64,000 nt of DNA. Source: an uncultured Candidatus Saccharibacteria bacterium (lineage in GTDB: Bacteria; Patescibacteriota; WWE3; 2-01-FULL-39-13). Numbering within the stretch: the stretch's first letter is position 1; every line of letters starts with the position of its first letter. The notes below the pieces were generated by a model. It saw nothing but the letters and a program-made list of their open reading frames with translations. It was not told where the DNA came from and searched no databases. Below, in pieces: positions 3,250-56,663 of this stretch. Position numbers and translations under genes: made by a program. The DNA lies in the NCBI GenBank assembly GCA_964370865.1, contig CAYJKF010000001.1, positions 35,703 through 99,702 on the forward strand, in the 5' to 3' direction.

Positions 3250-6200
3250 CTATATTTCTGTTGAAAGGTCTGACTCGATTACAGGTTCTTCTGCAGCGGC
3301 CACATCTGCGGCGATTCCACCATCATGATTGATAGGTGTAATAGCTAAACAAAGACCATTTAACTGTCTAACTAATAACTTAAATGATTCAGGTACTTGT
3401 GATTCTGGTATTGGTAATCCTTTAATAATAGATTGGAATGCCATATATCTACCTTTAATGTCGTCTGATTTAATAGTTAACATTTCGTGTAGCATACTAT
3501 CAGCTCCATATGCTTCTAGCGCCCAAACTTCCATTTCTCCAAATCTCTGACCACCGAATTGGGCCTTACCACCTAATGGCTGTTGAGTTATCAAGGAATA
3601 TGGACCAGTTGACCTAGCATGAATCTTCTCTTCGGCCATATGATGCAATTTGTAAATATAAATAGCCCCAACAGTAACTTCTTGATCAAAGTACTCTCCG
3701 GTTCGACCATCTATAAGTCTAGTCTTTCCCGATGCTGGTAACCCTGCATCGACTAATTCTTTTTGAATTGATTCGGTAGAAACCTTTTTAAATGGAGGAA
3801 TTGCATATTTCGTATTCTTAACTATTCCAGCCCAACCTAAATGAGCTTCTAGAACGTTACCAATATTCATTCTTCCTAAAATTGAAACAGGTGAGACAAC
3901 CACATCGACGGCTGTTCCATCTTCCATATGTGGCATATCTGCCTCAGGCATTATTCTTGCGATAACACCTTTCTGACCATGTCTATTTGATAATTTATCT
4001 CCTACGGAAATTCTTCTAAATTCAGCCACCTTAACATTTACTTCTCTAATTACACCCTTCGCCATTTGCTCTTTATCTTTTGGAGTAAGAATTTTCACAT
4101 CAATTACGACTCCACTTCTTCCATGTGGAACTCTAAGTGAGTTATCTTTTACATCCTGTACTCTTTCTCCAAATACTGCTCTTAATAATCTTTCTTCAGC
4201 TGATAATTCTGATTGACCTTTTGGAGCAATCTTACCAACTAAGATATCCTGAGATTTAACTTGTGATCCAATCACAACAATTCCATCAGATCCTAGATTT
4301 CTCAAAGAAGCCTCTGCAACGTTAGGAATATCAGCAGTCAACTCTTCTGGACCTAATTTTGTCTCCATTACTTGAACCGTATAGTCGGAAATATTTATAG
4401 AAGATAATAAGTCCTCTTTTAAAACTCTATCTGAAAGAATAAAAGCATCCTCAAAGTTAAAACCTTCATAACTCATTACCGCAACTTTTAGGTTTGTTCC
4501 AAGTGCTAATTCTCCGTCCTGCGAAGATGGACCCTCTGCTAATAAGTCGCCTTTTTTAACTTTATCTCCATTTTTAACAACGCATACCTGTGTATAACAG
4601 GAATCCATGTTTGATTGAGAGAATGTCACTAAATTATGTTCGAGTTTTAACCCGGATTTTGTTCCTCTTAATATAATTTTATTTGCATCTGCGTATTCAA
4701 TAACTCCATCTTCTTCAGCTCTCATAGTTAAACCAGCGTTATCAGCAATAAATTGCTCGTTTCCGGTACCAACTATTGGAGCTTGTGGTCTAGCTAAAGG
4801 AACTGCCTGAGATGACTGCTGTGCAGCAATCAAAGCTCTCGCAACGTCATTATTAGCGATAAAAGGAATCAATGCTGTTGAAACTCCTAATATCTGTTGA
4901 GACGAAACTTCGATGAAATGTGCATCCCTAGTATTTCCATTGAAAAACTTGATGCCTTTTCTCATTGGTGACTTTTCTGCTGCGATATATCCTTTGTCAT
5001 CGATATCGATATCTCCACCGATGATATTGTAATTTGGTTCATCATAAGCGGCTAAATATTCGAAGTCGTCTGTAACTCTTACTTTTCCATTCTTTTCTAC
5101 AGCGATTCTTGCATATGGAGTTTCTAAAAATCCATACTTATTTACACGTGCATATAATCCCATATATGTAACAAGCCCGATGTTTGGTCCTTCAGGACTT
5201 CTAATAACATCTATTTTTCCATAGTGAGTTGGATGAGCATCTCTAACATCGTAGCTTGCTCTCTCTCTGGTTAATCCACCTTTACCCATAACACTAAGTC
5301 TTCTCTTATGATCCAATGATTCTAGAGGATTAAATTCTCCTAGTAATTGTGATAATTGACCTGAAGATAAGTAAGAAATAATTCTTGCAGAAACAGGTTT
5401 TGGTGAAATCAATACAGATGGATCTGGAAGTTTTTCTCTAGGCTGTAATGCCATTTTTTCTCTAGCCAATCTTTCTAATTGATAAAAACCATATCTAATT
5501 TCTGATTGTAATAATTCCCCGACTGATCTGATTCTTCTATTTGCAAGGCTGTCTATATCATCCATTTCGTAACCTGGCTCTTGTCTGTACATATGAGCTA
5601 GATATTTAATTATTTCAATCAAGTCAGTCTTTTGTAATACCCAATATCTTTCTTCATTAGGAATGTCTCCACCTAATTTCATATTTAATTTAAATCTTCC
5701 GACATCGCCTAGGTTATATCTCTTTATATTGAAGAATAAATTATCTACCAAAGCCTTAGCAGCATCTATTATTAGTGGCTCTCCTGGCCTTACTCTTTTA
5801 TAGATTTCTAAAACCGCTTCATTATAATTTGAACTTGGATCTTTTTCTAAAGTCTTACCAATAACAGCATCTAGTAACTCCCTTGGAAGATCCTTAAATG
5901 CATTCATTATTTCTTCATTTGTTTCTAATCCGAAAATTCTAAGTAAAGTGGTTACCGGTACTTTTCTCTTTCGATCGATTCTTACGCTGATAACTCCCAA
6001 TTTATTAAATTCGAAGTCAATCCATGAACCTGTTTTTGGAAGTATCTTTGCGGTTGGTAAAAATTTTCCTGTTGCAGGGTCAGTGTCACCGCCAAAAAAT
6101 ACACCTTGAGATCTCGCCAACTGGTTTATAACTACTTTTGACACACCATTTACTAAAAAGGTTCCTTCATCCGTCATAATTGGGATATCTCCCATATATA

Positions 6201-10926: not shown

Positions 10927-11508
10927 TTATTGAGCAAGATATTTGTTGGCAGATCCAAGTAACAGGATATTCGGAGAAATCAAAAATGACAATAAGAAAT
11001 TTTCTCGTCTAGCTATGGTGTTTGTAAATTCGTCATCTTTTAAGACAGTGTAGTTAATATCTCTACCAATTTTTCGCGTCGCATCTTTAACAATATCTTC
11101 TAGCATTGCTAAATTTATGTCACCAACTAATAATAAATCCAATTGATCTGGTCTTGATATTCTTCCTTCAAAAAATTCGGCAGACATAAGAGCTAATCTA
11201 ACTTTTCCTAAATGTGGTTCGTTTTGAATTAATGAATTACCTAAGTGGATTTCTTTGGCAACCATTGATAATAATTCGTAATAATATGGGTGCTCTCTTT
11301 TTACTAAATAGTAAAGCCTATTCCCTCTTTGTTCTTTTTTTACTATTCCTGCTTTTGTTAATCTTTTGAGTTCCCGACGTATAGCGTTAACCTCGGTACC
11401 CACTCTTCTAGTGAGCTCTCTAACATATAAATTGTTGTTCACTTCAGAAAAAAGCTCGATTATAAGTTTGACTCTTACTTCCGAAGTTATTAGATCCTCT
11501 AGAAACAT
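10927..11508 (-). CDS. Winged-helix DNA-binding transcriptional regulator (ArsR/MarR-like wHTH with a C-terminal domain)
   Basis: An HTH-like segment (LYVRELTRRVGTEVNAIRRELKRLTKAGIVKK). There are no catalytic motifs. Confidence 0.45.
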   Translation of the reverse strand: MFLEDLITSEVRVKLIIELFSEVNNNLYVRELTRRVGTEVNAIRRELKRLTKAGIVKKEQRGNRLYYLVKREHPYYYELLSMVAKEIHLGNSLIQNEPHLGKVRLALMSAEFFEGRISRPDQLDLLLVGDINLAMLEDIVKDATRKIGRDINYTVLKDDEFTNTIARRENFLLSFLISPNILLLGSANKYLAQ

Positions 11509-23523: not shown

Positions 23524-23557
23524 CCTTCCAAATCAGTTTGAAAGACTCTTAAATGCG

Positions 23558-23640
23558 TGAGGCGGGGTAGAGTGTTTTGAATAGTGTTTTGATTGGAAAA
23601 ATCCCAGTCAAATCTTTTTCGAACACTCTGCCCGCCTCAT
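23558..23640. repeat. Long imperfect inverted repeat (about 18-bp stem with a 45-nt loop) at the left edge of GC-rich patch 1, followed by a second hairpin
   Basis: The arms are tgaggcggggtagagtgtt and aacactctgcccgcctca. The second hairpin, gtagctc...gagctac, lies at about 23650-23682. Confidence 0.5.
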
Positions 23641-23704
23641 TTGTAGCTCCGCTACCTCACGGTATGAGAGCTACTCCCAACGCATCTTGGCCTAGTCGGC
23701 GAGA

Positions 23705-24754
23705 TTAGTCTTCGATGAAGACCTCGCTGACAGTTCTGCTGCCGTTGTCGCTCTCGCGTGTTTTCCACTCAGCGAGTGTTTCGACTGACGGTCGACTTTC
23801 GAACGCGCAAGCGTACATGTGTGCCGTTCCCTCGGAACTATATCCAAGACCTTCGATCTGGACGTTCTGCCCCGGTTGGACAAGCAAGAGAACACGATCT
23901 CCGTACTGAACTTGATTCACACGTGCGGGATCCATCCCTGCCAAGACCCACAGGTCACTGTTGACGACCACCATGTCAGCTTGCGGATTATCGTATCCCA
24001 CAAGGAATGATGTGTCGTCTGGAACACATGTGACTACTGGTACTTCTTCGGTAACTTCAACTGCCGTATCTGCAGGCACCTCGACCGGGATGGTCTCGAT
24101 GACTGTTGAGGTTGTCGCCGCTGTTGCGGTGACGACGGTTGTTGCCACTGTGGCGAGGGCCACGACGGCGCCGGTGCGATGATCCACGACATCCACAACA
24201 TACGATACATTGTCTGACTGTGCCTGACGACGTTGCTCGATTGTGACCGGCGAAAGCATGTTGCTGCATTCGGGATAGGCATTAACGCTACCTGATGGCG
24301 ACAGAAGAGTCACCACGCGATAGGCACCTGGCCCCAAAAGCAGAACAGCAGACTTGCCACTCGACAGAGTAGCTCCGGTTAGCAGATCGTACAAAGTGTA
24401 AGGATCGGTCGTGACGATGCACTCATATGACTGTGGAACAACCATCGTGCCATCGCCGAGAGCCCAACCTGGCATGATTTGGTTTTGACCAAGAGTCGGA
24501 TATGCCGGACTTTTTGGCTCAACCGAAACCAAGACGATAGGAACTGCAGGGACTTCTGCGATGAGGAGAGTATTAGTCTCAACCTCGGACGCCTCAACAA
24601 CAGGCTCACCCTCGACCGGGATGGTCTCGGACTTGACTGTCGTGGCACTGTCACTGGTCGTAACTTGGGCTGGGGCCGAAGCCGGAGCCGGTGTCGCGCA
24701 TGCTGACAGAACCAACAAAACAACAAACAAACTACCTACAAGAAACTTGTTCAT
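23705..24754 (-). CDS. Secreted lipoprotein, hypothetical (GC-rich gene)
   Basis: A signal peptide with a lipobox (LVLSAC). The mature part is rich in V, T, A, P and E. The signal-peptide codons are AT-rich, but the mature part uses GC-ending codons (gtc, acc, ccg, atc). Confidence 0.6.
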   Translation of the reverse strand: MNKFLVGSLFVVLLVLSACATPAPASAPAQVTTSDSATTVKSETIPVEGEPVVEASEVETNTLLIAEVPAVPIVLVSVEPKSPAYPTLGQNQIMPGWALGDGTMVVPQSYECIVTTDPYTLYDLLTGATLSSGKSAVLLLGPGAYRVVTLLSPSGSVNAYPECSNMLSPVTIEQRRQAQSDNVSYVVDVVDHRTGAVVALATVATTVVTATAATTSTVIETIPVEVPADTAVEVTEEVPVVTCVPDDTSFLVGYDNPQADMVVVNSDLWVLAGMDPARVNQVQYGDRVLLLVQPGQNVQIEGLGYSSEGTAHMYACAFESRPSVETLAEWKTRESDNGSRTVSEVFIED

Positions 24755-25124: not shown

Positions 25125-25331
25125 TCAGATCAGTGCCAGCCACTCCAGAATCACGATGCTGGCGACTATTACTACTACTAGTACAACGACAGCGAGGACG
25201 ATCTTGACGACCATCCTGGCGACATTCGGCCTCCAAAGTGCTCCTGTAAGGAGCAAGAAAGCCAAAAGACTCGAAGCGAGAATGATACTCGCATTGAGCC
25301 GGAGATACTCAACCATCCAATCTTGATTCAT
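25125..25331 (-). CDS. Small two-TM membrane protein, hypothetical (GC-rich)
   Basis: A 68-aa protein with two hydrophobic helices. It lies downstream of promoter X-A. Confidence 0.45.
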   Translation of the reverse strand: MNQDWMVEYLRLNASIILASSLLAFLLLTGALWRPNVARMVVKIVLAVVVLVVVIVASIVILEWLALI

Positions 25332-25560: not shown

Positions 25561-25590
25561 ATTATACTATAGGGCCCCTACTTTTGTCAA
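25561..25590 (-). promoter_or_regulatory. Promoter X-A (cctataggaTTGACA-N18-TATAAT)
   Basis: The reverse complement of 25561-25598 reads cctataggATTGACAaaagtaggggccctatagTATAAT. The CTATAGG/CCTATAG inverted repeat brackets the spacer. Confidence 0.55.
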
Positions 25591-25659
25591 TCCTATAGGT
25601 CGCTTAAATTAAGAATAACCACCTTATATAATGTGCTTCCAACGATTGAAACAATCCTT

Positions 25660-25701
25660 GGATTGTAAAAAGGATCTGTGTCCTGCCCAGTCACAAATCC
25701 T
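25660..25701 (-). terminator. Terminator module Y-A (11-bp stem hairpin plus a U-run on the minus strand), downstream of gene 25851-26900
   Basis: The minus strand reads aaggatttgtg-actgggcagga-cacagatcctt followed by tttacaa. Confidence 0.55.
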
Positions 25702-25850
25702 TATACAAATCATTAATAAGTCTCAACTTACTTTTACCTTCGACTTAGATGTCAAAAACAAAAGTAAATTGGATCCAGAAAGAAATTAAAAAGTGTTGTG
25801 TGCGTGCTTGTTAGCATGCTCTTTTTAATCCTTCCTGGATCCATGGTTGT

Positions 25851-26900
25851 CTAGCGGGCGACGAAGGCGAGGTGAATCTTGTATGGAGAGAAGAAAAACT
25901 TCTGGAAATACATCCGTAGAGGCGACCGATCAGGGTCAAAAACGAGTTCGATTGTCTCAAACTCATACTCAACCACTACTAGGTCAACATCTTGGAAATT
26001 CTTCCAGAACTTTCCATCCACGTATACGTTGACCGACTCGACTTTGCAGCCAAAATTCAACTGTAAGTTGTTTCCATCCATTGTCCACAAGAAATTCGTG
26101 GGATGAGGTGTACTACAACTTGTAGGCGGTGGGGTGACACTGGGTGTCGGGAACACAACGAGTGTTGCAGTTGGCGATGGCGACGGTGTTGAGGTGGGAG
26201 CTGGTTCAATAGACCCAAATAGTTCTTCCCAAGTCAAATAGACCTTGGAATTTTGACCATCTGGATCAATCGCGAGCTCCATATCAACCACAAAATCCGA
26301 TTTGTTCACACGAACGACACCACCAGCCTCACTTCGGACAAATTCACCATCAAGATACAGATTTGCAATTTTGTTGCAGTCCCATCTGATGATGACTTCA
26401 TCCTCTACCACTTCCCATAATGAAAGACATACAACGGGAACCTCGGTTTCCGTTGGTGTTACCGTCATGGTAGAGACTGCTGTTGGTGAAATTGTTGGGT
26501 TGGGTGTCACCGGAACTAGATCCAGAAACAAGTAAACCTGATTGTCAGTCTCGTCTGTCTCAACAATCAAATTGTCTGGATCGAGCACGACTTCCAAACT
26601 TGTTTCTGGGCATCCCCGCACCAACAAAATCTCCGTTGGCGAAACCTCATTTCGACCAATATTTGTGTAATGGTCGAATTCCCCATCAACGTAGATATGA
26701 ACGATGATAGTGGCCTCTATCAATTCTGGGTTCTGAACTGCAAATTCCAAAATGACGAAGCACTGATCATCATGCGAAACAATATTAAACGTCCCGACTG
26801 AAATATTCGGAAGAGTCTCCGCCCGAACAACCGACACGGTCAAGCCTATAACCATAACAAGCGCCATGGCGACCAAGAACAAACTACACATCTTCTTCAT
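25851..26900 (-). CDS. Secreted protein with three internal approximately 100-aa repeats joined by Pro/Thr-rich linkers, hypothetical
   Basis: A signal peptide. The motifs HIYVDGEFDH, LYLDGEFVRSE and NVYVDGKFWKN recur, each followed by a DPD motif. PT-rich linkers separate the repeats. Confidence 0.6.
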   Translation of the reverse strand: MKKMCSLFLVAMALVMVIGLTVSVVRAETLPNISVGTFNIVSHDDQCFVILEFAVQNPELIEATIIVHIYVDGEFDHYTNIGRNEVSPTEILLVRGCPETSLEVVLDPDNLIVETDETDNQVYLFLDLVPVTPNPTISPTAVSTMTVTPTETEVPVVCLSLWEVVEDEVIIRWDCNKIANLYLDGEFVRSEAGGVVRVNKSDFVVDMELAIDPDGQNSKVYLTWEELFGSIEPAPTSTPSPSPTATLVVFPTPSVTPPPTSCSTPHPTNFLWTMDGNNLQLNFGCKVESVNVYVDGKFWKNFQDVDLVVVEYEFETIELVFDPDRSPLRMYFQKFFFSPYKIHLAFVAR

Positions 26901-27145
26901 GTTATCTCCTTGTGATAGTGTTGCGAAACAACCAAATAGAAAGCCATTTAAGCTACCTATTAGGTTGTTCCACAGAAACTAACCAAAGAGAATTTTCCGC
27001 TAGACTATTGTCAATATGAAACATATCCTTCTCCGCTTATGGATTGGAAAATTTCATACTATATTAATGTTCGATGAGTAAACTCATCAATATAAACCTA
27101 AGAAGCAAATTCTTCGGTTCATTCAGTCAACGAATAAATTCCTTG

Positions 27146-27187
27146 ACTTGTAAAAAGGATTCGTGTCCTGCCCAGTCACGAATCCTT
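27146..27187 (-). terminator. Terminator module Y-B (near-identical copy of Y-A), immediately preceded by W motif copy 2
   Basis: The minus strand reads aaggattcgtg-actgggcagga-cacgaatcctt followed by tttacaag. The stem is perfect. Confidence 0.55.
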
Positions 27188-27325
27188 ATACAAAAGTTGC
27201 GAACTGTCTAGTGTACTATTTAATTGTTATAAGTCTAGAGAATATTTTAGGCAGGGCGGGTTGCGATGAATCAGATTTGGGCCTGCGTAAAATAATCCTC
27301 TGTAATTCAATTGCGCGGCAAGTAT
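27150..27325 (-). ncRNA. Candidate approximately 170-nt small transcript or attenuator leader between promoter X-B and terminator Y-B
   Basis: A near-consensus promoter sits at 27321-27349 (minus strand). An intrinsic terminator follows about 130 nt downstream at 27146-27187. No convincing ORF lies between them. The next gene starts about 250 nt beyond the terminator. Confidence 0.35.
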
Positions 27326-27349
27326 ACTATAGGACTATATTTTTGTCAA
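27321..27349 (-). promoter_or_regulatory. Promoter X-B (cctctaggaTTGACA-N17-TATACT)
   Basis: The reverse complement reads cctctaggATTGACAaaaatatagtcctatagTATACT. Confidence 0.5.
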
Positions 27350-27458
27350 TCCTAGAGGTAAACCAATCCGCAGTTTAGAAGCTCAATTACCGCCAAATTC
27401 CTCTGCTATAGGTTTTGACAACATTGGATATTTATGCTAAATTTCAAGCACTAAAACC

Positions 27459-37194: not shown

Positions 37195-39048
37195 TTATTC
37201 TAGCACAGCCTTTATTCTTCTAACTCCTTTTGCAACAGCTTCTTCTTTTAAAATTTTAAAGTGACCAAGTTCTGAAGTATTTCCTACATGTGGTCCACCG
37301 CAAAATTCTTTTGACCATGCCGATTCGATTGTTTCTCCAACATAATAAACGTTTACCATGTCTGCATATTTTTCACTAAAAAAATGAATTGCACCAGTCG
37401 CCTCGGCTTCTTTTATTGGAAGAACAACTTTATTCATTGGAAGTTTTTCTGAAATTTTTTGATTTACGAGTTGTTCGACTAACGCAATTTGTTCCACGGT
37501 CATCTTTTCATTATGCGAAAAATCAAAACGCAATCTTTCTGGCGTAATATTACTTCCCATTTGTCCAACATGTGTTCCTAATATTTCTCTAAGTGCGCTG
37601 TGTAATAAATGGGTAGCTGTATGAAGTTTTGTTGTTTCATAGGAATGGTCACCAAGCCCTCCTTTAAATCTATCACCCATATTTGCACGAGATTTTTCTT
37701 GATGCTCTTCGAGTTGTTTTTCGAAATCAGTAAAATCTACTTCTAAATTTAATTCTTTAGCGAGATTTTCAATTAAATCTTTTGAAGCGCCTTGTGATTG
37801 GTAAATATCAAATGGATTGTCGATTTTAGATAAAGCTTTGTTTACATATGTATGTGTTATAAAATTTCTTGTTCGATTAAATACTTCTTTATATAAATTA
37901 ACTTCATCGTTTATAACTTTAAAAATATGCGCCGTGTTATCAAGTTCTGGATAGATGTGTTTGTTTTTTTCAATAACCATTAATGCTATCTGATCAATTT
38001 GATCTGGGTTTATATATAGGTTCCACAGGCATTCATCAAATATCCTTCTTATAAGTCTTCTTAATACATATCCTTGATCTTTGTTTGATGGATATAAATT
38101 TTCAGCAATCAAAAAAGTTACAGTTCTAATATGGTCAGCGACCCTTTGAACTCCTGTTTTAATAGTTGTTTGCTCAATTGTAGTTGGATTTACTAAAGCG
38201 TCTTGAATTTTTTCGGATTCAGAACTTAAAGCAATTATTTTATTTATTATTTCGGAAAAAACATCTGTTTCATAAACAGAATCCACGTGCTGAATAAGTG
38301 TTGTCATTCGCTCAAGGCCTGAACCGGTATCAACAGATAAAGCAGGAAGTGGAGTTAGTTTTCCATCTTCTCCACGATTAAATTGCATAAAAACTCCTGC
38401 ATTCCAAATTTCTAAGTATCTTGGATTATCAGTTAGTCCTGGTCGATCTTCTTTTGGACCAAATTCTTCTCCTCTATCATATAAAACTTCAGTGCAGGGA
38501 CCACATGGACCAACGGGACCTGGAGCCCACCAATTTTCACTCCCTGGCAATTTTGAAATGTGAGATTCAGGTACTCCAACTGATTTCCATGCCTCAATGG
38601 TTTCAGTATCTTCGGGGCATTCTTCGTTTCCTTCAAAAACAGTCGGACGGAATTTTGTAGCATCAAATCCGAATCCGTATTCTTTGTTTGTTAACAAATC
38701 AAATGCAAACTGAATGGCTTCTTTTTTGCCATAATCTCCAATTGACCAGTTACCAAGCATTTCGAAAAATGTAAGGTGATATTTACTTGTTCCAACAATA
38801 TCTAAATCTCCAGTTCTAATACATTTCTGTGAGCTACAAAGTCTCTTCGAACCAAAATCTTTCTCGGCATCCCTCTCACCTAAAAAATAAGGCGTAAATT
38901 GAACCATTCCAGAATTTGTAAAAAGCAATGTTGGATGATTTTCGGGAATAAGTTTACTCGATGAAACCTCAATATGAGGATATCCACGTTCAGCCAAAAC
39001 CTTAACAAAATAATCAATAAATCTCTTACGGATTTCAGTAGATGTCAT
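37195..39048 (-). CDS. alaS: Alanine--tRNA ligase (short form lacking the C-terminal domain)
   Basis: An N-terminus MTSTEIRKRFIDYFVKVLAERGYPHIEVSSSKLIP...LLFTNSGM, the class II core, and an editing-domain HxxxH motif (TATHLLHSALR). The longer ORF in the track, ending at 39210, overlaps the conserved repeat, so M55 is the more likely start. Confidence 0.8.
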   Translation of the reverse strand: MTSTEIRKRFIDYFVKVLAERGYPHIEVSSSKLIPENHPTLLFTNSGMVQFTPYFLGERDAEKDFGSKRLCSSQKCIRTGDLDIVGTSKYHLTFFEMLGNWSIGDYGKKEAIQFAFDLLTNKEYGFGFDATKFRPTVFEGNEECPEDTETIEAWKSVGVPESHISKLPGSENWWAPGPVGPCGPCTEVLYDRGEEFGPKEDRPGLTDNPRYLEIWNAGVFMQFNRGEDGKLTPLPALSVDTGSGLERMTTLIQHVDSVYETDVFSEIINKIIALSSESEKIQDALVNPTTIEQTTIKTGVQRVADHIRTVTFLIAENLYPSNKDQGYVLRRLIRRIFDECLWNLYINPDQIDQIALMVIEKNKHIYPELDNTAHIFKVINDEVNLYKEVFNRTRNFITHTYVNKALSKIDNPFDIYQSQGASKDLIENLAKELNLEVDFTDFEKQLEEHQEKSRANMGDRFKGGLGDHSYETTKLHTATHLLHSALREILGTHVGQMGSNITPERLRFDFSHNEKMTVEQIALVEQLVNQKISEKLPMNKVVLPIKEAEATGAIHFFSEKYADMVNVYYVGETIESAWSKEFCGGPHVGNTSELGHFKILKEEAVAKGVRRIKAVLE

Positions 39049-39082
39049 GAAGGTATTATATAGGATTTTGTCTTTGGAAAAA

Positions 39083-39207
39083 GGGTACTGCGGCTGATAG
39101 GGTGAAAGAAAAAGTTTTGTATTCAAAAGAATACATGTTTTGGTCGAAATGACCGAAACAGATCTATGAAGATCAACTTTTCTCTCAACCCTATCAGCTT
39201 TTTTTAT
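39083..39207 (+). ncRNA. Structured repeat element copy 1 (candidate small RNA). It has a long closing stem, two internal perfect hairpins and a T7 run.
   Basis: The outer stem is gctgatagggtgaaagaaaaagtt / aacttttctctcaaccctatcagc. Inside are the hairpins gtattc-aaaa-gaatac and ggtc-gaaat-gacc. The element ends in TTTTTTT. A -10-like TATTATAT lies about 25 nt upstream. A second copy, about 90% identical, is at 40312-40437. The strand assignment is tentative. Confidence 0.4.
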
Positions 39208-39310
39208 CAAATGAATTCATTTTATTTTTCTTAGCACGATTGCCAAGAATTTTTTTACTATTTTAATGCGGTAAAGCTATGTAAACAACTCCTCGCGGAA
39301 TTGTTAAAAA

Positions 39311-39345
39311 GAAGCAGAACCCGGGACGGGGGTTCTTTTCTTTGT
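39311..39345. terminator. Bidirectional intrinsic terminator hairpin (agaaccc-ggga-c-gggggttct, flanked by an A-run and a T-run) after gene 39348-39875
   Basis: Read directly from the sequence. Confidence 0.6.
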
Positions 39346-39347
39346 GT

Positions 39348-39875
39348 TCATCGCTTTACCGCGAGGACGACATGGAGTCCTCCATTGCTGGAGCTCCCGG
39401 CAACCCAAAGTTTAGCACGAGGCTGTTCGGTACTTGGATCAAGCCAAGTATAAGTTTGCCCTGGCCAAACAATCCATCCATCTACAAAGACTTCCGAGAC
39501 AACTGTGCCTTCCTTCCCGTAGGGAGGAGTCATCCGGATGAATAACTCATCCTTCATGATTCCATAACCTATGAGGTCGGCTTCTATGTTGTACTGATCG
39601 AGGACGGGGAAGCCCTTGTCGATTGGAAACAACTCTGGCATACGGCCAGGTAATGCTGGAAGATTTTGGATAACATACATGTTGACTGGGCTATACCCAA
39701 CTTGGAGTATCTCCCAATTCTCGTCCGCCGTAGGAAGCGCTGTCAGTGTCGATACTTCAGTTGGCATCTCCATAGAAGTCGATGGAAGTGCTTCCCCGAC
39801 TCTTTCGGATACTTTGCATACCAAAAAAGATATCAACAGTCCAACACACACCAAAAATCCCAGTAGCTTACTCAT
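39348..39875 (-). CDS. Secreted hypothetical protein (cassette copy 1; moderately GC-enriched)
   Basis: A signal peptide (MSKLLGFLVCVGLLISFLVC). The C-terminal segment EVFVDGWIVWPGQT resembles EVFLNGIPVEPGIT in the gene at 40579-41811. An AGGAGG ribosome-binding site lies upstream. Confidence 0.55.
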   Translation of the reverse strand: MSKLLGFLVCVGLLISFLVCKVSERVGEALPSTSMEMPTEVSTLTALPTADENWEILQVGYSPVNMYVIQNLPALPGRMPELFPIDKGFPVLDQYNIEADLIGYGIMKDELFIRMTPPYGKEGTVVSEVFVDGWIVWPGQTYTWLDPSTEQPRAKLWVAGSSSNGGLHVVLAVKR

Positions 39876-39944
39876 CTAGTACCTCCTAGGTACTTAAACA
39901 CCAGTGGATTATTAAGGTGCATCGCGATAAATTGCGATTTGATT

Positions 39945-40006
39945 CTCTTTCCCCAAAAGCTGGATTCCTCGCACCACGAGAGGTTTCCTTGGGCGTCCCG
40001 AAAGAG
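39945..40006 (-). promoter_or_regulatory. Conserved multi-stem 5' leader element (copy 1) in the long leader of gene 39348-39875
   Basis: On the sense strand the stems are P1 cucuuuc/gaaagag, P1b cccaa/uuggg and the hairpin cucg-uggu-cgag. The same three helices are preserved in copy 2 (41888-41955) despite loop and linker differences. Confidence 0.4.
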
Positions 40007-40184
40007 CAAACAACCAGATAATGACTTATGTCGCTGTCTAGTTGCTTACTTATTCAAGACTAAAAGAAAAATATCCCTAAGAATTCATTTTATTATTAAT
40101 GTACTCGAAACATCGTTAGCAAAGCCTATTTGCACCGTGTTGTCGAAAGATGTTCAGCTTGAAATGTTTTAAGCAGAACGCCTA

Positions 40185-40219
40185 ATTATATCGCAAATTA
40201 GCACAAACTCAACCTATAG
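40185..40219 (-). promoter_or_regulatory. Cassette promoter, copy 1 (ctataggTTGAGT-N16-TATAAT)
   Basis: The reverse complement reads ctataggTTGAGTttgtgctaatttgcgaTATAAT. Confidence 0.5.
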
Positions 40220-40311
40220 TAATCTAGCCAGGCTCGATTACTTGGTCAAAATTTTCTTCAATTTTTGCTGATGTCAGGATGATGTTATATAGATTTTTAT
40301 ATTGTGAGAAA

Positions 40312-40437
40312 GGGTACTGCGGCTGATAGGGTGAAAGAAAAAGTTTTGTATTCAAAAGAATACAATGTTTTGGTCGAAATGACCGAAACAGATCTTAAAT
40401 GATCAACTTTCCTCTCAGCCCTATCAGCTTTCTTTGA
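40312..40437 (+). ncRNA. Structured repeat element copy 2 (candidate small RNA)
   Basis: It has the same stem/hairpin architecture as copy 1. It is preceded by an extended -10-like TGtTATATA. Confidence 0.4.
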
Positions 40438-40578
40438 ATCAAATGAATTAATTTATTTTTCTTAGCACGATTGCCAAGAAATTTTTCTTTCTACAGCAAC
40501 TGCTATATGAACAATTCCTCACGGAACTGTTAGAAAGAAGCAGAACCCGGGACGGGGGCTCGACTTCTCTTCTCATCT

Positions 40579-41811
40579 CTACCTTGCGGTAGGGACGAGG
40601 GGTGATTCAGCGGTGCCCGCAAGGCTTGTTTGCCCTGGGCAAAGTGACAGCTGGAAAGCTCTCCCGACGATGAGGACATCTCCTCGAACTATGTCGTCAT
40701 AGCGAACTTTTAGGACCCAATTGTCTCCCCACCTCGTGATACCTGGTTCAACCGGAATGCCGTTCAAGAACACCTCTTGAATGAAGAATACATTCTCCTG
40801 GTTGAACTGAACAATATGGACCTGAATGAGATCTCCACCATTAGTGAGGTCAAATAGGCCCTCGCCATGCAAAGACCACTCTGGTCCTTCTACTTCTTCC
40901 TGCCAGGAAGTCTCAACTGCAGACGTCGTGATGACGCTGACGTAGGGATCTCCCGAACCACGGACGAGGTAACATTTCTCGCCATCATCAGGCTCCGGAG
41001 TTGATGTTGCCTCGACGTTGGGCATTGGTGTTGGAATTTCCGTAGGTTGTTCTGTGGGAACTTCCGTTGGTTGTTCTGTAGGAACTTCCGTTGGTTGTTC
41101 TGTGGGAACTTCCGTTGGTTGTTCTGTAGGAACTTCCGTTGGCTGTTCTGTAGGAACTTCCGTTGGCTGTTCTGTGGGAACTTTCGTTGGTTGTTCTGTA
41201 GGAACTTCCGTTGGCTGTTCTGTGGGAACTACCGTTGGCTCGTCTGTTGGGACTGCCGTTGGTTCGTCTGTTGGGACTACCGTTGGCTCGTCTGTCGGGA
41301 CTGCTGTTGGCTCGTCTGTTGGGACTGCCGTTGGTTCGTCCGTCGGGACTGCCGTTGGTTCGTCCGTCGGGACTGCCGTTGGCTCGTCTGTTGGGACTAC
41401 CGTTGGCTCGTCTGTTGGGACTACCGTTGGCTCGTCGTCTGTTGGGACTGCCGTTGGTTCGTCTGTTGGGACTTCTGTACACTCTGGTGTGGGAACTTGA
41501 GTAGGAACCTCTGTCGGCTTCGGGGTTTTTGTGGGTTTATCACCACCACACCAACCTTCGTTACCATCGGCTCTATCTTCATCGTTACCACATCCATTAT
41601 TATCGTGTGGCTTTCCCTCCCCAGGATCAGGTGTGCCTTGATCTCGATCTGGCCCATGACCATCATTGTCTGGCTCGTTGAAACCTCGGGTCGGCTCCGG
41701 CAAAGGAGAATCCTTCGATCCATTTGCACTCACCACACGAGGAAGCATTATCATTGTGCCAAGCAAGGCCACAATAATAATTACACTGAATACCGCAAAC
41801 AACTTGCGCAT
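40579..41811 (-). CDS. Secreted protein with a long (PTDEPTAV)n/(PTEQPTEV)n Pro/Thr-rich tandem-repeat region (cassette copy 2; GC-rich)
   Basis: A signal peptide, an acidic Gly/Asp-rich N-terminal region, about 20 eight-residue repeats and a C-terminal globular part. It has the same flanking leader and 3' repeat elements as copy 1. Confidence 0.65.
   Translation of the reverse strand: MRKLFAVFSVIIIVALLGTMIMLPRVVSANGSKDSPLPEPTRGFNEPDNDGHGPDRDQGTPDPGEGKPHDNNGCGNDEDRADGNEGWCGGDKPTKTPKPTEVPTQVPTPECTEVPTDEPTAVPTDDEPTVVPTDEPTVVPTDEPTAVPTDEPTAVPTDEPTAVPTDEPTAVPTDEPTVVPTDEPTAVPTDEPTVVPTEQPTEVPTEQPTKVPTEQPTEVPTEQPTEVPTEQPTEVPTEQPTEVPTEQPTEVPTEQPTEIPTPMPNVEATSTPEPDDGEKCYLVRGSGDPYVSVITTSAVETSWQEEVEGPEWSLHGEGLFDLTNGGDLIQVHIVQFNQENVFFIQEVFLNGIPVEPGITRWGDNWVLKVRYDDIVRGDVLIVGRAFQLSLCPGQTSLAGTAESPLVPTAR
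41018..41500. repeat. 24-bp coding tandem-repeat array (about 20 units, two subfamilies) inside gene 40579-41811
   Basis: Units such as ggaacttccgttggttgttctgtg and ggactgccgttggttcgtctgtt repeat head to tail. They translate on the minus strand to VPTEQPTE and VPTDEPTA. Confidence 0.85.
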
Positions 41812-41887
41812 GGGAATTTTCCCTCCTTTGCGCTAAAAACTTGACCTAACGTTACCAATAGTGCATCGCTTTCGCGATTCTGATTCC

Positions 41888-41955
41888 TCTTTCCCCCCAA
41901 AAAACTGGATCCTCGCACTACGAGAGAGATCACTTGGGTTTGTCCCGAAAGAGAG
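41888..41955 (-). promoter_or_regulatory. Conserved multi-stem 5' leader element (copy 2)
   Basis: See copy 1. Confidence 0.4.
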
Positions 41956-42168
41956 AGCGATAAGATAACGATCGTTATCTTTACCTTATTGCTCAATCCT
42001 TAGGAAATATAGAAAGAAAAATATCCCTTTAAAATATTAAATTCATTTGATTGTTAAGGTACGTCATTTGAAGGGATTATTATAAGCGAAGCATCTTCGC
42101 TCGTATTTCTTCAAATCGAGTTCAGACACATGTTATATAGAATATATAGCAGGGTAAGAACAAGGCCT

Positions 42169-42203
42169 ATTATACTACATTTTTAGTATAAATCAACCTA
42201 TAG
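42169..42203 (-). promoter_or_regulatory. Cassette promoter, copy 2 (ctataggTTGATT-N16-TATAAT)
   Basis: The reverse complement reads ctataggTTGATTtatactaaaaatgtagTATAAT. Confidence 0.5.
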
Positions 42204-42211
42204 TACGTTGG

Positions 42212-43267
42212 CTAGAGCCTTAAGACAATCTCAAACTCCTCCTCAATATGCTCTGCTGACGTAACAATAGTCTGATATTTTTTCATTACGCTGGTTATAT
42301 TCTCCCTAAAATTGTCATCTAGCTCACTGAAAATATCGTCGAGTAAAAGAGTGGGAACTACTTTTGTCTCCTTTTCGATATATTGGAGCTCAAGGATTTT
42401 GAGGGCGAGGGCAGCAGTTCGCTGCTGCCCCCTAGAACCATAACTCTGAAGATCTAAATTCCTACTATCCTTAGCTATAATAAAATCAAAATCATCCCGA
42501 TGAGGTCCAACAGAAGTAGAGCCTTTGGATAAATCCCTACCTCGGCTCGCCTCTAAGGAACTTGGCGTAATAAGCACCGGCTTATAATCCAACTGCAATA
42601 AATATTCATTCCCAAACAATTCACCAGACACCTTATCTAAATTTTCCTTAGCAAATTCAAAAAACATCTTTCTAGACTGTTGTACATACATTCCTGCATC
42701 GGTTAATTGCTTATCCCAAACTTCTAATTGGTTCTCAAATATATTATGAATAACTTGTCCTTCAGCCATATCCAAAAGTTTGTTTCTATGTTTAAGTAGT
42801 CGTTCATACCTGTGAATGGTTCGATAATATTCTGACGAAACCTGTGAAAGTAAACCATCCACATAATCTCTGCGCCTAGAAGGCGAACCAATTACAAGCC
42901 TAATATCTTCGGGGTTAAATAAGACCGCTTTAAAAATACCAACAAAATCTTTTGACTTCTTTACGACTCCATTCTTTTTGAAAGTCTTTTTAACACGTCC
43001 CATTCCCGATCTTTCCTCTATAAACTCAAGCTTAGTATTATCTTCAAAAACCCCAACAGTTCTACAAAAGTTGGAATCAATATTAATCATCTCCTTTTCA
43101 GTAACCGCACGAAATGATCTTCCTTTACTTAAAACGCTAATTGCCTCAAGAATATTCGTCTTTCCTGAACCGTTCGAGCCTGATATCAAAGTAGTAGTAC
43201 TAGAAAGACTAACTTCTTTTTTAAGATGATTTCTAAAATTTTGTAACTCAATCGTTCGAATTTTCAT
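42212..43267 (-). CDS. recF: DNA replication and repair protein RecF
   Basis: An N-terminal Walker A (ISGSNGSGKTNILEAI) with the SMC-like RecF architecture. Confidence 0.85.
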   Translation of the reverse strand: MKIRTIELQNFRNHLKKEVSLSSTTTLISGSNGSGKTNILEAISVLSKGRSFRAVTEKEMINIDSNFCRTVGVFEDNTKLEFIEERSGMGRVKKTFKKNGVVKKSKDFVGIFKAVLFNPEDIRLVIGSPSRRRDYVDGLLSQVSSEYYRTIHRYERLLKHRNKLLDMAEGQVIHNIFENQLEVWDKQLTDAGMYVQQSRKMFFEFAKENLDKVSGELFGNEYLLQLDYKPVLITPSSLEASRGRDLSKGSTSVGPHRDDFDFIIAKDSRNLDLQSYGSRGQQRTAALALKILELQYIEKETKVVPTLLLDDIFSELDDNFRENITSVMKKYQTIVTSAEHIEEEFEIVLRL

Positions 43268-49325: not shown

Positions 49326-49880
49326 ATGCCTCAATATAATTCAGATTTTAACTTCGCTTCTAAGGAAGAAACTAATTTAAGCTTTAATCAGAAAGTTGTT
49401 GACTGGTCAATACAATCAGGCAAAAAGATCATAATAATAACGGAGGCAATCGTCCTTATCAGCCTATTCGCAAAGTTTAAATTAGTCAGAGATTCTAACG
49501 CCATAAATTATAAATTAGAGAATTTGAAATTAGAAGTATTGCAAAAAACTGAAGAAGAAAAACGTTTCAACGAAATCATATCCGATATAAATAAATTCAA
49601 AGAAATTGAGGCTAGTCAAATTAATTGGGTAGATCGGTTTGTATTAGTTAATAAAAATGTGGCAGACCAAGTTATCCTTACCAGCGCAACATACACTGTC
49701 GATCAAGCCACAATAAAAGCACAAGTGTCAGATATTAGAGCCTTTGGAGTTTTTATAGGAAAAATATTAAGTGAGGATAGAATTACCAGCGCCTCATTAA
49801 TATCAAGTGAGTTTAATCAAGACGATCAACTGTTTATATTTGAAATGGTTTTAAAGATTAAAGATGTCGAGCGACTTTAG
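49326..49880 (+). CDS. PilN-like type IV pilus assembly protein (putative)
   Basis: A bitopic protein with an N-terminal TM segment and a coiled-coil, adjacent to a PilO-like gene. Confidence 0.4.
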   Translation: MPQYNSDFNFASKEETNLSFNQKVVDWSIQSGKKIIIITEAIVLISLFAKFKLVRDSNAINYKLENLKLEVLQKTEEEKRFNEIISDINKFKEIEASQINWVDRFVLVNKNVADQVILTSATYTVDQATIKAQVSDIRAFGVFIGKILSEDRITSASLISSEFNQDDQLFIFEMVLKIKDVERL

Positions 49881-54903: not shown

Positions 54904-55590
54904 CTAAAATGAGTATATCATAAAATCTTGGATCATCTGTAATTTAGACTTATAAGAATTAGATTTCATGTCAAATTCTAGTTTATAAATGTCCAAAAGG
55001 ATATTTTTTAGCTGGGCAATTTCTAATTTTGAATTTTGTAATTTACTTTTAAAAAACGGACTTATTTTTTTTGAGGTTTCATTTTTTGATTTTATGGATA
55101 AAATATTTCTGACATAAGTTTGCGCTAGACTGGCAAACATAAAAACAGCTGCCTCGTCTTCATCAATATTTAACAGTTTAGTAATCGCGGACTTTTTATC
55201 ATTACGAATAAATAAACAGTCACATATATCAAATGATTGTGAATCGAATTTTTCATCAAATTTAATGAGTTCTACGACTTTTGGTAATGTTTTTGCAGTG
55301 GCAGCCTCTAATTTATAGCTAAGTACGAAATAAAGATTTGTATTTTTAACAATTGGTTCGATTTGTTTTATAAAATCGACTACTTTAGATTTATCGGCTG
55401 GCTCAACTTTAATGATTACTAGTTTATCTCTATCATCAAATAATGAATTTGCGCTAAGTAAATCTTTGATATCTAATTCAGTTTTTATTAAACCCTGAAA
55501 TTCATATACTAAGCTTTTATCAAATTTATTCTTAACATTTGAAATATATTCCTGGATTTTTACTTTATCGTCTCCCGATATTATTTGCAT
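54904..55590 (-). CDS. Hypothetical protein, possibly a short DNA polymerase III delta subunit (HolA-like)
   Basis: Weak resemblance to the N-terminal HolA domain. The length (228 aa) is short. Confidence 0.3.
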   Translation of the reverse strand: MQIISGDDKVKIQEYISNVKNKFDKSLVYEFQGLIKTELDIKDLLSANSLFDDRDKLVIIKVEPADKSKVVDFIKQIEPIVKNTNLYFVLSYKLEAATAKTLPKVVELIKFDEKFDSQSFDICDCLFIRNDKKSAITKLLNIDEDEAAVFMFASLAQTYVRNILSIKSKNETSKKISPFFKSKLQNSKLEIAQLKNILLDIYKLEFDMKSNSYKSKLQMIQDFMIYSF

Positions 55591-56663
55591 TCGGCTTGTG
55601 AGTCGTCACAAAAAAGGTAAGATCTGACTAAGGTTTTAATAGCTTCATATGTCCTCCCTGTAGGAACTAAAACATATTTCCCACTATAAAATTGTTCACG
55701 TTCTTCTTCGGTAGGTGATTCTAACATTCCAGAGCCTAAAACATTTGGATTTTTTAATTCGTTAGATAAAACTATTTTCTTTACATTAAGATTCTCAGTT
55801 GAACTTACCATGTCATAAAAATATAAAATCTCTGAAAGACTAATATCAGTTTCGACATTTTGCTTGTAGGCTTCATATAGTTCTGCGATTTTGCCAGGGT
55901 TAAGTAAGGTTTCGGAAGAAAGAATTTCGTCTTTTAATGCGACTAAAACTTTTTGTTGGCGTCTGGCCCTGGCAAAATCGCCAGCCTCATTAAAATTTTC
56001 TGAATGCCTAGATCTAGCATACTGAAGTGCCTTCTCACCATCCATGGTCTGGATACCCTTTTCAAATCTGACTGTCATATATCTTGCACTTTCAGGTATA
56101 GCATTCTCCATTCCCTCTACTGGATATAAATGGTCAACAAAAGCTTCTTCGACTTCAATGTCTAATCCTCCAACTGCGGTTATTGCATCTTTGAAGGCAC
56201 TAAATCCTACCAATGCTGTGTAATGAATAGGAATTCCTACTATTTCCTCAACTTTTTCCTGAACTTTTTTTACATCCCTACCCCTTCCTTCATAAGGAAA
56301 ATAATTCCATGCATACAACGCATTAATTTTCTCATCAATCTCATCGACCCATAAATCACGAGGAATTGAGACCATTACTGTATTTGAATTATTGTCCCCA
56401 ATTGATAGAACCATAATTGTGTCCGTAAGAACTCCACCCTGTGTACTGCCTGGTGATCTTTGATCTAAACCTAGAACTAGAATATTGGTCCTACCATCTG
56501 TGGATTTGATATCTTGCGCGGTAAAGACCTTCGAAACAACTGAAACGGGCTTAAATAGTGCAGCCGCAAGGCCTCCATTCTTGAAGAATAAAATTGATAC
56601 TATTATCGAAACTATAAATATTAATAGAAAAAAATATTTTAAGACCGGTCCTAATTTGAACAT
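55581..56663 (-). CDS. LytR-CpsA-Psr (LCP) family cell-envelope glycopolymer transferase
   Basis: An N-terminal TM segment and the LCP block ILVLGLDQRS...TDTIMVLSI...VSIPRDLWV. Confidence 0.8.
   Translation of the reverse strand: MFKLGPVLKYFFLLIFIVSIIVSILFFKNGGLAAALFKPVSVVSKVFTAQDIKSTDGRTNILVLGLDQRSPGSTQGGVLTDTIMVLSIGDNNSNTVMVSIPRDLWVDEIDEKINALYAWNYFPYEGRGRDVKKVQEKVEEIVGIPIHYTALVGFSAFKDAITAVGGLDIEVEEAFVDHLYPVEGMENAIPESARYMTVRFEKGIQTMDGEKALQYARSRHSENFNEAGDFARARRQQKVLVALKDEILSSETLLNPGKIAELYEAYKQNVETDISLSEILYFYDMVSSTENLNVKKIVLSNELKNPNVLGSGMLESPTEEEREQFYSGKYVLVPTGRTYEAIKTLVRSYLFCDDSQAECK

Follow-up and report, generated by a model that had tools for sequence, protein, structure and literature searches.

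A conserved structured element beside secreted-protein genes in the recF-alaS interval of a Patescibacteria genome: a possible 3' module of their transcripts

Introduction

Stable structures located 3' of bacterial genes include mRNA stabilisers, of which the REP/BIME stem-loops and the "positive retroregulator", an inverted repeat 3' of the cry genes of B. thuringiensis, are described examples. Small RNAs (sRNAs) that derive from 3' UTRs, with or without a promoter of their own, are another established class. As for palindromes next to aminoacyl-tRNA synthetase genes, the AlaRS of E. coli binds one at its own promoter. For Patescibacteria, a search of the literature on leaderless translation or structured RNAs found nothing relevant.

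Here we describe a structured element that occurs twice between recF and alaS in a Patescibacteria genome of at least 0.57 Mb. The genome was scanned within a window of 64 kb, which is the whole stretch of DNA that was analysed. As with the 3' structures above, the element lies downstream of protein-coding genes, in this case genes for secreted proteins. An initial annotation had taken it for a 125-nt small RNA candidate of the plus strand, with its own -10 box and a terminator made of seven T (T7).

Results

Fold and copies of the element

The element is bounded by an imperfect inverted repeat of 24 nt (39093-39116 and 39175-39198) that is 79% complementary. Inside it are the perfect hairpins gtattc-aaaa-gaatac (39119-39134) and ggtc-gaaat-gacc (39142-39154). 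The closing stem, these two hairpins, the T7 run at 39199-39205, TATTATAT at 39054-61 and the second copy had all been described in the initial annotation, and all are in the sequence. A third inner hairpin, gatct-atga-agatc (39161-39174), had been overlooked; with it, the element is a four-way junction.

The size of the element is about 108 nt. Copy 1 spans 106 nt on the minus strand (39093..39198; covariance model R1, 140.9 bits) and is predicted to fold into a closing stem, P1, of about 23 bp with two 1-nt bulges, and three hairpins termed a (39161-39174), b (39136-39160) and c (39119-39134). Copy 2 (40322..40428, minus strand) is 94% identical to copy 1. The changes are in the loop of hairpin a, in a 1-nt indel at the junction and at two closing-stem positions that became G.U or A.C, and these two still pair, as a wobble on one or the other strand. 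The stem of copy 1 is followed by a single-stranded tail, CGCAGUACCC (39083..39092, minus strand), and then by UUUUU (39078-39082). The distance from 39083, where the initial annotation had placed the start of the element, to the ATG of alaS (39048) is about 35 nt.

The minimum free energy (MFE) lies between -49 and -51 kcal/mol, with z between -7.5 and -10, for both copies and both strands. None of 200 shuffled sequences folded as well, on either strand. Judging from its sequence, this is a real, strongly folding and selected structured element.

A tandem duplication of the recF-alaS interval

On the minus strand, the order of features is recF, U2, ORF410, L2, U1, ORF175, L1 and alaS. The gene alaS (37195..39048, minus strand; 617 aa, with its start confirmed by identity to the called protein P0001) has a core promoter, TATAAT, at 39055-39060, followed by 6 nt and then by the ATG (39046-39048), which is a leaderless-type start. 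ORF175 (39348..39875, minus strand) encodes an orphan secreted protein, is GC-rich and has a strong AGGAGG Shine-Dalgarno sequence. Upstream of it, U1 (39876..40219, minus strand) holds the promoter CTATAGGTTGAGT-16-TATAAT (40185-40219) and a structured 5' UTR of about 300 nt. ORF410 (40579..41811, minus strand) encodes a secreted PT-repeat protein of 370, 410 or 418 aa among assemblies, and is preceded by U2 (41812..42203, minus strand), with the promoter CTATAGGTTGATT-16-TATAAT (42169-42203) and a structured 5' UTR. The neighbouring genes are all on the minus strand. Those within about 6 kb include RNase J, UDG, recF, alaS, DUF456, an FtsA-like gene and RuvX, and no recombinase, transposase or reverse transcriptase was found within that distance of the element.

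The structure is present twice, as first reported, and the repeat is far larger than 125 nt. L1 (39032-39335) and L2 (40261-40561) are homologous over about 300 nt, with 87% identity, and form part of tandem units of 1.2 and 1.95 kb that also have the U regions in common: U1 (39876-40260) aligns with U2 (41812-42210) at 59-74% identity, depending on the aligner. At the duplication junction between L2 and U1 (40224..40277, minus strand), a remnant of alaS (alaS') is fused to a remnant of recF (recF'). A dead alaS start, CTGACATC, is found at 40270-40277, where the intact gene reads ATGACATC. The C-terminal remnant of recF, IEENFDQVIEPG and a stop, is at 40224-40262, and the true C-terminus of recF is HIEEEFEIVLRL and a stop.

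These remnants indicate a head-to-tail duplication of one interval, running from the last 12 or so codons of recF into the first few of alaS. The element is present twice only as a result of this duplication of all that lies between recF and alaS. As products of a tandem segmental duplication, the two copies do not speak for a repeat family or for a recombination site. The junction falls in the alaS' and recF' remnants, away from the element, which speaks against the recombination site that had been suggested at first.

Relatives and covariation

Relatives were found by AlaRS homology, along a gradient of identity, and the contigs of several were compared. Other assemblies of the source organism carry identical elements. 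The sole close relative, L085 (AlaRS 81% identical), has the element at the equal place and in the same orientation. The order there is recF, a U-like region (nhmmer E = 1.5e-8), a PT-rich secreted ORF of 161 aa, 163 nt of non-coding sequence and alaS. Within these 163 nt, on the alaS-sense strand, the homologue reads GGCCGAUAGGU...ACCUAUCGGCC, enclosing a GGUCAGUUCGAC hairpin and a GUGC-UCAU-GCAC hairpin. It has no hairpin a and is a three-way junction.

A search with nhmmer, using the element against all loci, did not find the L085 copy by sequence alone. A covariance model built from the two window copies alone recovered it with 29.7 bits and E of about 9e-5 in 328 kb, E-values of such models being rough according to the tool's own description. 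For the alignment, hairpin a, which is specific to the window, was excised, as MAFFT otherwise misplaced the 5' arm of L085. Among the 37 predicted pairs, 7 changed on both sides and are still paired (three sequences, two independent lineages). In the outer stem, all 10 positions pair in each of the three sequences, and in hairpin c and P1c of L085 the sequence differs and the fold is the same. Compensatory changes, as expected of a structured RNA, thus maintain the helices of the element, which covary with a homologue from another genome; with two independent lineages, this evidence is thin.

In L085, the approximately 40 nt between the stop of the ORF and the element are filled by a hairpin. 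Judged by this layout, the element there can hardly be other than 3' UTR.

Both the cassette and the element are absent in seven relatives with an AlaRS identity of 67-74% (L086-L090, L100 and L101). There, recF and alaS are adjacent or overlap, or are separated by toxin-antitoxin and glycosyltransferase genes. Since the element is present in L085 together with the cassette and absent from the seven relatives without it, it travels with the cassette and not with alaS. No further copies were found in the 64-kb window, and none in 328 kb of related loci except the syntenic one of L085, so there is no sign of the dispersed copies of a known repetitive extragenic palindrome family. An alaS-anchored scan of GTDB species representatives returned only relatives of 46% identity or less, of no use for the element.

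In terms of what fills the recF-alaS gap, we observed PIN or BrnT/CopG toxin-antitoxin genes or glycosyltransferases (L086 3068-5934; L087 24-317; L088 2280-3720). By its contents, this gap is seen as an insertion hot spot in the clade. L101 has a recF-alaS spacer of 224 nt (3777-4000) with a GC-rich, apparently structured stretch (GGGTAGACCCTACGTGTACTCTCGGTGCAGCCC...GGTGCCACGTGTGC) whose sequence is unrelated to the element.

Conservation and strand of region L

The L regions contain more modules than the element. Immediately 3' of ORF175 is T1 (39316..39336, minus strand), a terminator-like hairpin with a U-rich tail; in its copy 2 equivalent (40543-40561) an A-U pair is changed to G.U on the minus strand. 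Next, the comparison between copies reveals hairpin 2, AACAAUUCC-GCGA-GGAGUUGUU (39284..39305, minus strand), where the copies differ by two transitions and pairing is preserved on the minus strand only. Lastly, a conserved block at 39219..39246 (minus strand; copy 2 equivalent 40450-40477) reads as a promoter-like site, TTGGCA-16-TAAAAT, on that strand and equally as a hairpin of 9 bp, hairpin 3 (UUCUUGGCA/UGCUAAGAA), with G.U on the sense strand only.

Conservation along L is a mosaic. The element (94% identity between copies) and its tail CGCAGTACCC (100%) are the best-conserved parts, followed by the hairpin-3 or promoter-like block (93%) and hairpin 2 (86%), and the spacer within L is down to 42%. 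Beside copy 2, the remnant of the alaS promoter is 70% identical to the alaS promoter region and the alaS' remnant 67%. This alternation of discrete conserved blocks with a diverged spacer speaks for purifying selection on each copy rather than one tract of gene conversion. As copy 2 does not adjoin alaS, selection acts on a function that does not depend on alaS.

The first hairpin after each cassette ORF keeps its loop, CCGUCC (39316-39336), CCGUCC (40543-40561) and UCGUCC (L085 2293-2321), on stems that differ (GAACCC/GGGUUC vs CUCU/AGAG). The core of the U 5' UTR contains a complement of this loop, GGGACG/GGACG, which may be a coincidence. When base-pairing between the U 5' UTR and L was evaluated, the full-length duplex energies lay inside the shuffle distribution.

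To assign a strand, wobble pairs were counted in the helices common to the copies, each helix being defined identically for both strands. Across the helices of L, about 9-10 independent G.U pairs occur on the minus strand only and 2 on the plus strand only. The minus-only pairs of the window are in T1 (L2), hairpin 2 (L1 and L2, at different positions), hairpin 3 and P1b (one shared and one specific to L2), and those of L085 in hairpin b and in its first hairpin (2-3 pairs). The plus-only pairs are in P1a of L2 and in hairpin b of the window copies. Considering only the element, the count is 3 on the minus against 2 on the plus strand. The sense fold is better by 12 kcal/mol in L2 and by 6 kcal/mol in L085, whereas L1 as a whole folds better in antisense (-92.3 vs -88.9 kcal/mol); the MFE of the element is equal on both strands in the window copies. 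We conclude from these counts and folds that L as a whole probably behaves like an RNA of the minus strand; for the element itself, neither the 3 pairs against 2 nor the folding energy favours a strand.

The two signals that had been assigned to a plus-strand transcript are not maintained. The "own -10 box" is the reverse complement of the alaS TATAAT (39055-39060) and is present in relatives without the element: CCTATATAAT-N6-ATGACATC is kept in the window, L085, L087 and L088, and L086 and L089 have a TATAAT 6-7 nt before the ATG. Its counterpart in copy 2 is TGTTAT, in a region that is 70% identical, against 94% for the element. The T7 run is TTTCTTT in copy 2 and has no counterpart in L085. 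With neither signal conserved and the -10 belonging to alaS, the plus-strand sRNA gene loses both. On the minus strand, U-runs are found 6-10 nt past the stem, as U5, UUUCUC and U6 in copy 1, copy 2 and L085, respectively.

A class of secreted-protein genes and their 5' UTRs

A strong promoter motif, CTATAGG(A)TTGAnn-N(15-19)-TAnAnT, is found at four sites in the window and no others, always on the minus strand and once per ORF (42169-42203, 40185-40219, 27321-27357 and 25561-25598). The four ORFs that share it upstream are ORF410, ORF175, 25851-26900 and 23705-24754, all on the minus strand. They have in common a signal peptide or lipobox, a low-complexity and relatively GC-rich sequence, a 5' UTR of about 300-800 nt and a strong AGGAGG, which is rare in this genome. 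Besides the PT repeats, no known family was assigned to them. ORF175 and ORF410 show no mutual similarity, and a search for homologues of ORF175 and of the C-terminal domain of ORF410, meant to reveal further cassette contexts, left both as orphans. Two of the four promoters are bracketed by an inverted CTATAGG...CCTATAG, which could be an operator.

Long stable hairpins are found 3' of every gene of this class, those at 23551-23644 and 25775-25846 directly after the other two ORFs. The hairpin at 23551-23644 scores 26.6 bits with the model and has a core GGG-C-AGAG...CUCU-AC-CCC and a CGCA tail that are reminiscent of the element. It is only a possible third member of the family, because a poor match in a coding region scores 22.6 bits and because it folds better on the plus strand, by 10 kcal/mol.

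At the other end of the cassette, the U 5' UTR has a core (39925-40015 and 41870-41962 on the minus strand; L085 1678-1768 on the plus strand) in which 5 of 20 predicted pairs are double-changed and paired. It is composed of an outer helix CUCUUUC/GAAAGAG, a helix CCCAA/UUGGG and an inner hairpin with the loop UGGUG or UGGUA, and has no Rfam match. We regard this core, which precedes secreted-protein genes, as a cis-regulatory RNA candidate. A hairpin in U1, GUACCUAGGAGGUAC, also sequesters the Shine-Dalgarno sequence.

A contrasting picture is seen in the rest of the window, where genes are mostly without a Shine-Dalgarno sequence. In many, a TATAAT-like box stands 6-9 nt ahead of the ATG (for example 10927-11508, 55581-56663, 49326-49880 and 37195-39048), and the form CCTATA(G)TATAAT recurs. 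We infer that leaderless mRNAs are probably the norm in this genome.

Some further features of the class were observed. ORF410 has a 24-nt tandem repeat (40957-41484) that encodes (T/E)(D/E)(E/Q)PT(A/V/E)VP units. The repeat number varies among assemblies of the same organism (L081 and L082 included) and several assemblies break there. By these signs, the product resembles a surface protein of variable size. The long regions upstream of the two ORFs of 349 aa contain a repeated terminator-like hairpin (25655-25700 and 27145-27190, minus strand), AAGGAUyyGUG-ACUGGGCAGGA-CACrrAUCCUU followed by UUUUAC. Inside the leader of about 800 nt of the 23705-24754 gene is a small ORF (25150-25331, minus strand), ATGAATCAAGATTGG..., for a hydrophobic peptide, which may be a real small membrane protein.

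Searches against known families and collections

Rfam 15 gave 0 matches at the gathering score over the whole window. At E <= 10 with permissive filters, nothing credible was found in 38900-42300, the best sub-threshold matches being at chance level (e.g. Trp_leader_2, 28.6 bits against a threshold of 100). The T-box model (RF00230) had no match at the gathering score and none at E <= 10 over 38900-42300, and ARAGORN found 0 tRNA or tmRNA genes in the window. This agrees with the initial annotation, which had recognised neither a T-box nor a tRNA or tmRNA.

As for mobile elements, the attC boxes (RYYYAAC...GTTRRRY) are absent at the ends of the element, which are GCTGATAGGG and CCCTATCAGC, and the genes within about 6 kb include no integrase. 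The element shows no target-site duplication, and the homology between copies runs far past it. REP, ERIC and MITE families have many copies, and here two tandem-duplicate copies only were found in 64 kb. Plasmid and phage collections had no match to the element. Finally, the pattern GATAGG..GGTCANTTCGAC..CCTATC returned 9 GC-rich chance matches in JGI metagenomes, which apparently do not contain this organism, so that the result carries little weight, and 0 in viral contigs. The element is uncatalogued and found in two related lineages only.

Discussion

The reading that we favour, with a probability of about 0.4, is that the element may serve the cassette RNA of the gene-sense strand as a conserved, structured 3' module, in the role of a stabiliser, terminator or insulator. 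The cassette would consist of U (promoter and leader), the ORF and L, a conserved non-coding 3' region of which the element would be the terminal module. The minus-strand RNA would be made by read-through from the cassette promoter, or possibly from the promoter-like site within L. A stable multi-branched fold with a single-stranded tail and a U-run could set and protect the end of this RNA. The leaderless core promoter that follows directly downstream (that of alaS for copy 1, that of U1 for copy 2) would thereby be shielded from upstream transcription. The "elaborate terminator" that the initial annotation had offered as an alternative comes near to this, on the opposite strand.

In favour of a 3' module, the other two genes with the same promoter also have long stable hairpins directly 3' of their stops, and copy 2, away from alaS, has remained 94% identical while the neighbouring remnant of the alaS promoter decayed to 70%. 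On the other side, the sense U-run begins 6-10 nt past the stem, unlike that of a canonical intrinsic terminator, and a simple 3' stabiliser would not require anything as elaborate as a four-way junction. T1, a terminator of canonical appearance, is already present upstream in the window and is followed by a conserved promoter-like site, an arrangement that better fits a separate sRNA gene. The strand signals are also uneven, with 3 wobble pairs against 2 in the element, a slightly better antisense fold of L1 and the plus-strand preference of 23551-23644.

Such a separate sRNA gene on the gene-sense strand, acting in trans or binding a protein, is the main rival, in our view an unlikely one. 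Transcription from TTGGCA-16-TAAAAT (39246->39219; copy 2 40477->40450) would begin around 39212 and stop at the U-run after the closing stem, for an RNA of about 135 nt; in L085 the RNA would be released by processing of the 3' UTR of the ORF. The promoter-like site has 10 of 12 positions, is present in both copies within the 93% block and lies downstream of the terminator-like T1, and the element and its tail CGCAGUACCC are what L conserves best. The same block, however, is equally well explained by its 9-bp hairpin with sense-only G.U. The site also has no CCTATA(G)TATAAT signature, which marks the clear promoters of this genome, L085 has no room for a promoter, and a canonical terminator is missing. 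No convincing complementarity was found to the start regions of the cassette genes, alaS, recF or DUF456, by unrestricted duplex predictions that are uninformative. On the opposite strand, a small RNA divergent from alaS that starts after TATTATAT (39054-61) and ends at T7 (39199-39205) is very improbable. The T7 run, directly after the closing stem of copy 1, has good intrinsic-terminator geometry, this strand equals the other in folding, G.U occurs at two helix positions on it alone and the loosely similar hairpin 23551-23644 prefers it. Yet the T-run is interrupted in copy 2 and lost in L085, the -10 is the alaS TATAAT read backwards, kept where there is no element and decayed in copy 2, the flanking helices of L have a minus-strand wobble bias, and all neighbouring genes are on the minus strand.

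Function at the level of DNA is improbable as well, be it a protein-binding or cruciform palindrome, an attC-like or MITE/REP-like recombination site, or homology arms for cassette exchange. The count of 3 against 2 wobble pairs, with no clear strand bias inside the element, is what a DNA palindrome would give; relatives show the recF-alaS gap to be a hot spot of variation, and the ORFs between the conserved U and L are mutually unrelated. Covariation of the inner hairpins, on the other hand, points to single-strand folding. The position of the duplication junction, the lack of recombinase, transposase and reverse transcriptase genes within about 6 kb, of GTTRRRY/RYYYAAC end boxes and of a target-site duplication, and the scans of the 64-kb window, the 328 kb of related loci and the plasmid and phage collections all run against it. 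Barely credible is a regulator specific to alaS, whether a leader of the T-box kind or a site for AlaRS itself, as an operator or a mimic of tRNA-Ala. Both copy 1 and that of L085 do lie directly upstream of alaS, and the four-way junction of the window is superficially cloverleaf-like. Against this, the L085 form is a three-way junction and not a cloverleaf, the T-box and ARAGORN searches were negative, and a leaderless-type promoter (TATAAT-N6-ATG), kept across the clade, stands between the element and alaS. With seven related alaS loci lacking the element and copy 2 conserved away from alaS, the distribution of the element largely refutes this reading.

Going beyond the 3' module, U and L could be the conserved, structured arms, 5' and 3', of a cassette by which this lineage expresses secreted or surface proteins that evolve fast and are made strongly, with the L junction as a dedicated RNA module; we regard this as decidedly unlikely. 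Four such genes, with one promoter motif in common and mutually unrelated ORFs, are found in the 64 kb. The junction might then, for example, be bound by an RNA-binding protein specific to the lineage, or act as a regulator derived from the 3' UTR through which cassettes are expressed together or to the exclusion of others, and U and L could supply homology for swapping or duplicating the ORF. If so, this would be a new type of surface-variation system in an episymbiotic bacterium.

If the element does serve as the 3' stabiliser or insulator of a cassette for hypervariable secreted proteins, it would show how reduced-genome Patescibacteria/CPR-like bacteria organise high-level expression of surface proteins, the cassette genes standing out in a genome that is mostly leaderless and free of Shine-Dalgarno sequences. 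The lineage, in which hardly any non-coding RNAs are characterised, would also gain two structured RNAs, the uncatalogued element and the one of the 5' UTR. The element is narrow and lineage-specific, being found in two related genomes, and its value is that of a well-defined target for metatranscriptome checks.

In terms of known systems, the element shares with T-box leaders the position of a structured, RNA-like element upstream of an aminoacyl-tRNA synthetase gene. Unlike them, it lies upstream of the alaS promoter and not in the mRNA, is unmatched by the model, is missing from related alaS loci and is conserved in a copy away from alaS. Similarly to ERIC, Correia, RUP, REP and MITE sequences, it is an imperfect intergenic palindrome of about 100-130 nt that can fold as RNA. 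It differs from them in having two copies that arose through a tandem duplication of 1.2-1.9 kb, no signature of terminal inverted repeats with target-site duplication, and no match in the collections searched.

The likeness to intrinsic or bidirectional terminators is closer, with a stable intergenic stem, flanked in copy 1 by an A-run and a T-run, at the expected end of the upstream transcript and just before the next promoter. Intrinsic terminators are short GC-rich hairpins, whereas the element is a three- or four-way junction of 106 nt with a closing stem of about 23 bp. Its sense U-run is also 6-10 nt off the stem, its plus-strand T-run is unconserved, and T1 already precedes it in the window.

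With 3' UTR-derived sRNAs, the element has in common a conserved structured RNA at the end of an mRNA and, in the window, a putative internal promoter. In L085, which has no such promoter, processing would be needed. The element differs in having no canonical terminator and no known target or Hfq/ProQ-type context.

Finally, as in the 3' stabilisers, a large stable inverted repeat is found 3' of genes for highly expressed exported proteins, where it would be expected to block 3'-to-5' exonucleases. In contrast to the REP/BIME type, this putative stabiliser is not a dispersed repeat, and its conserved inner hairpins and tail suggest something more specific than a roadblock.
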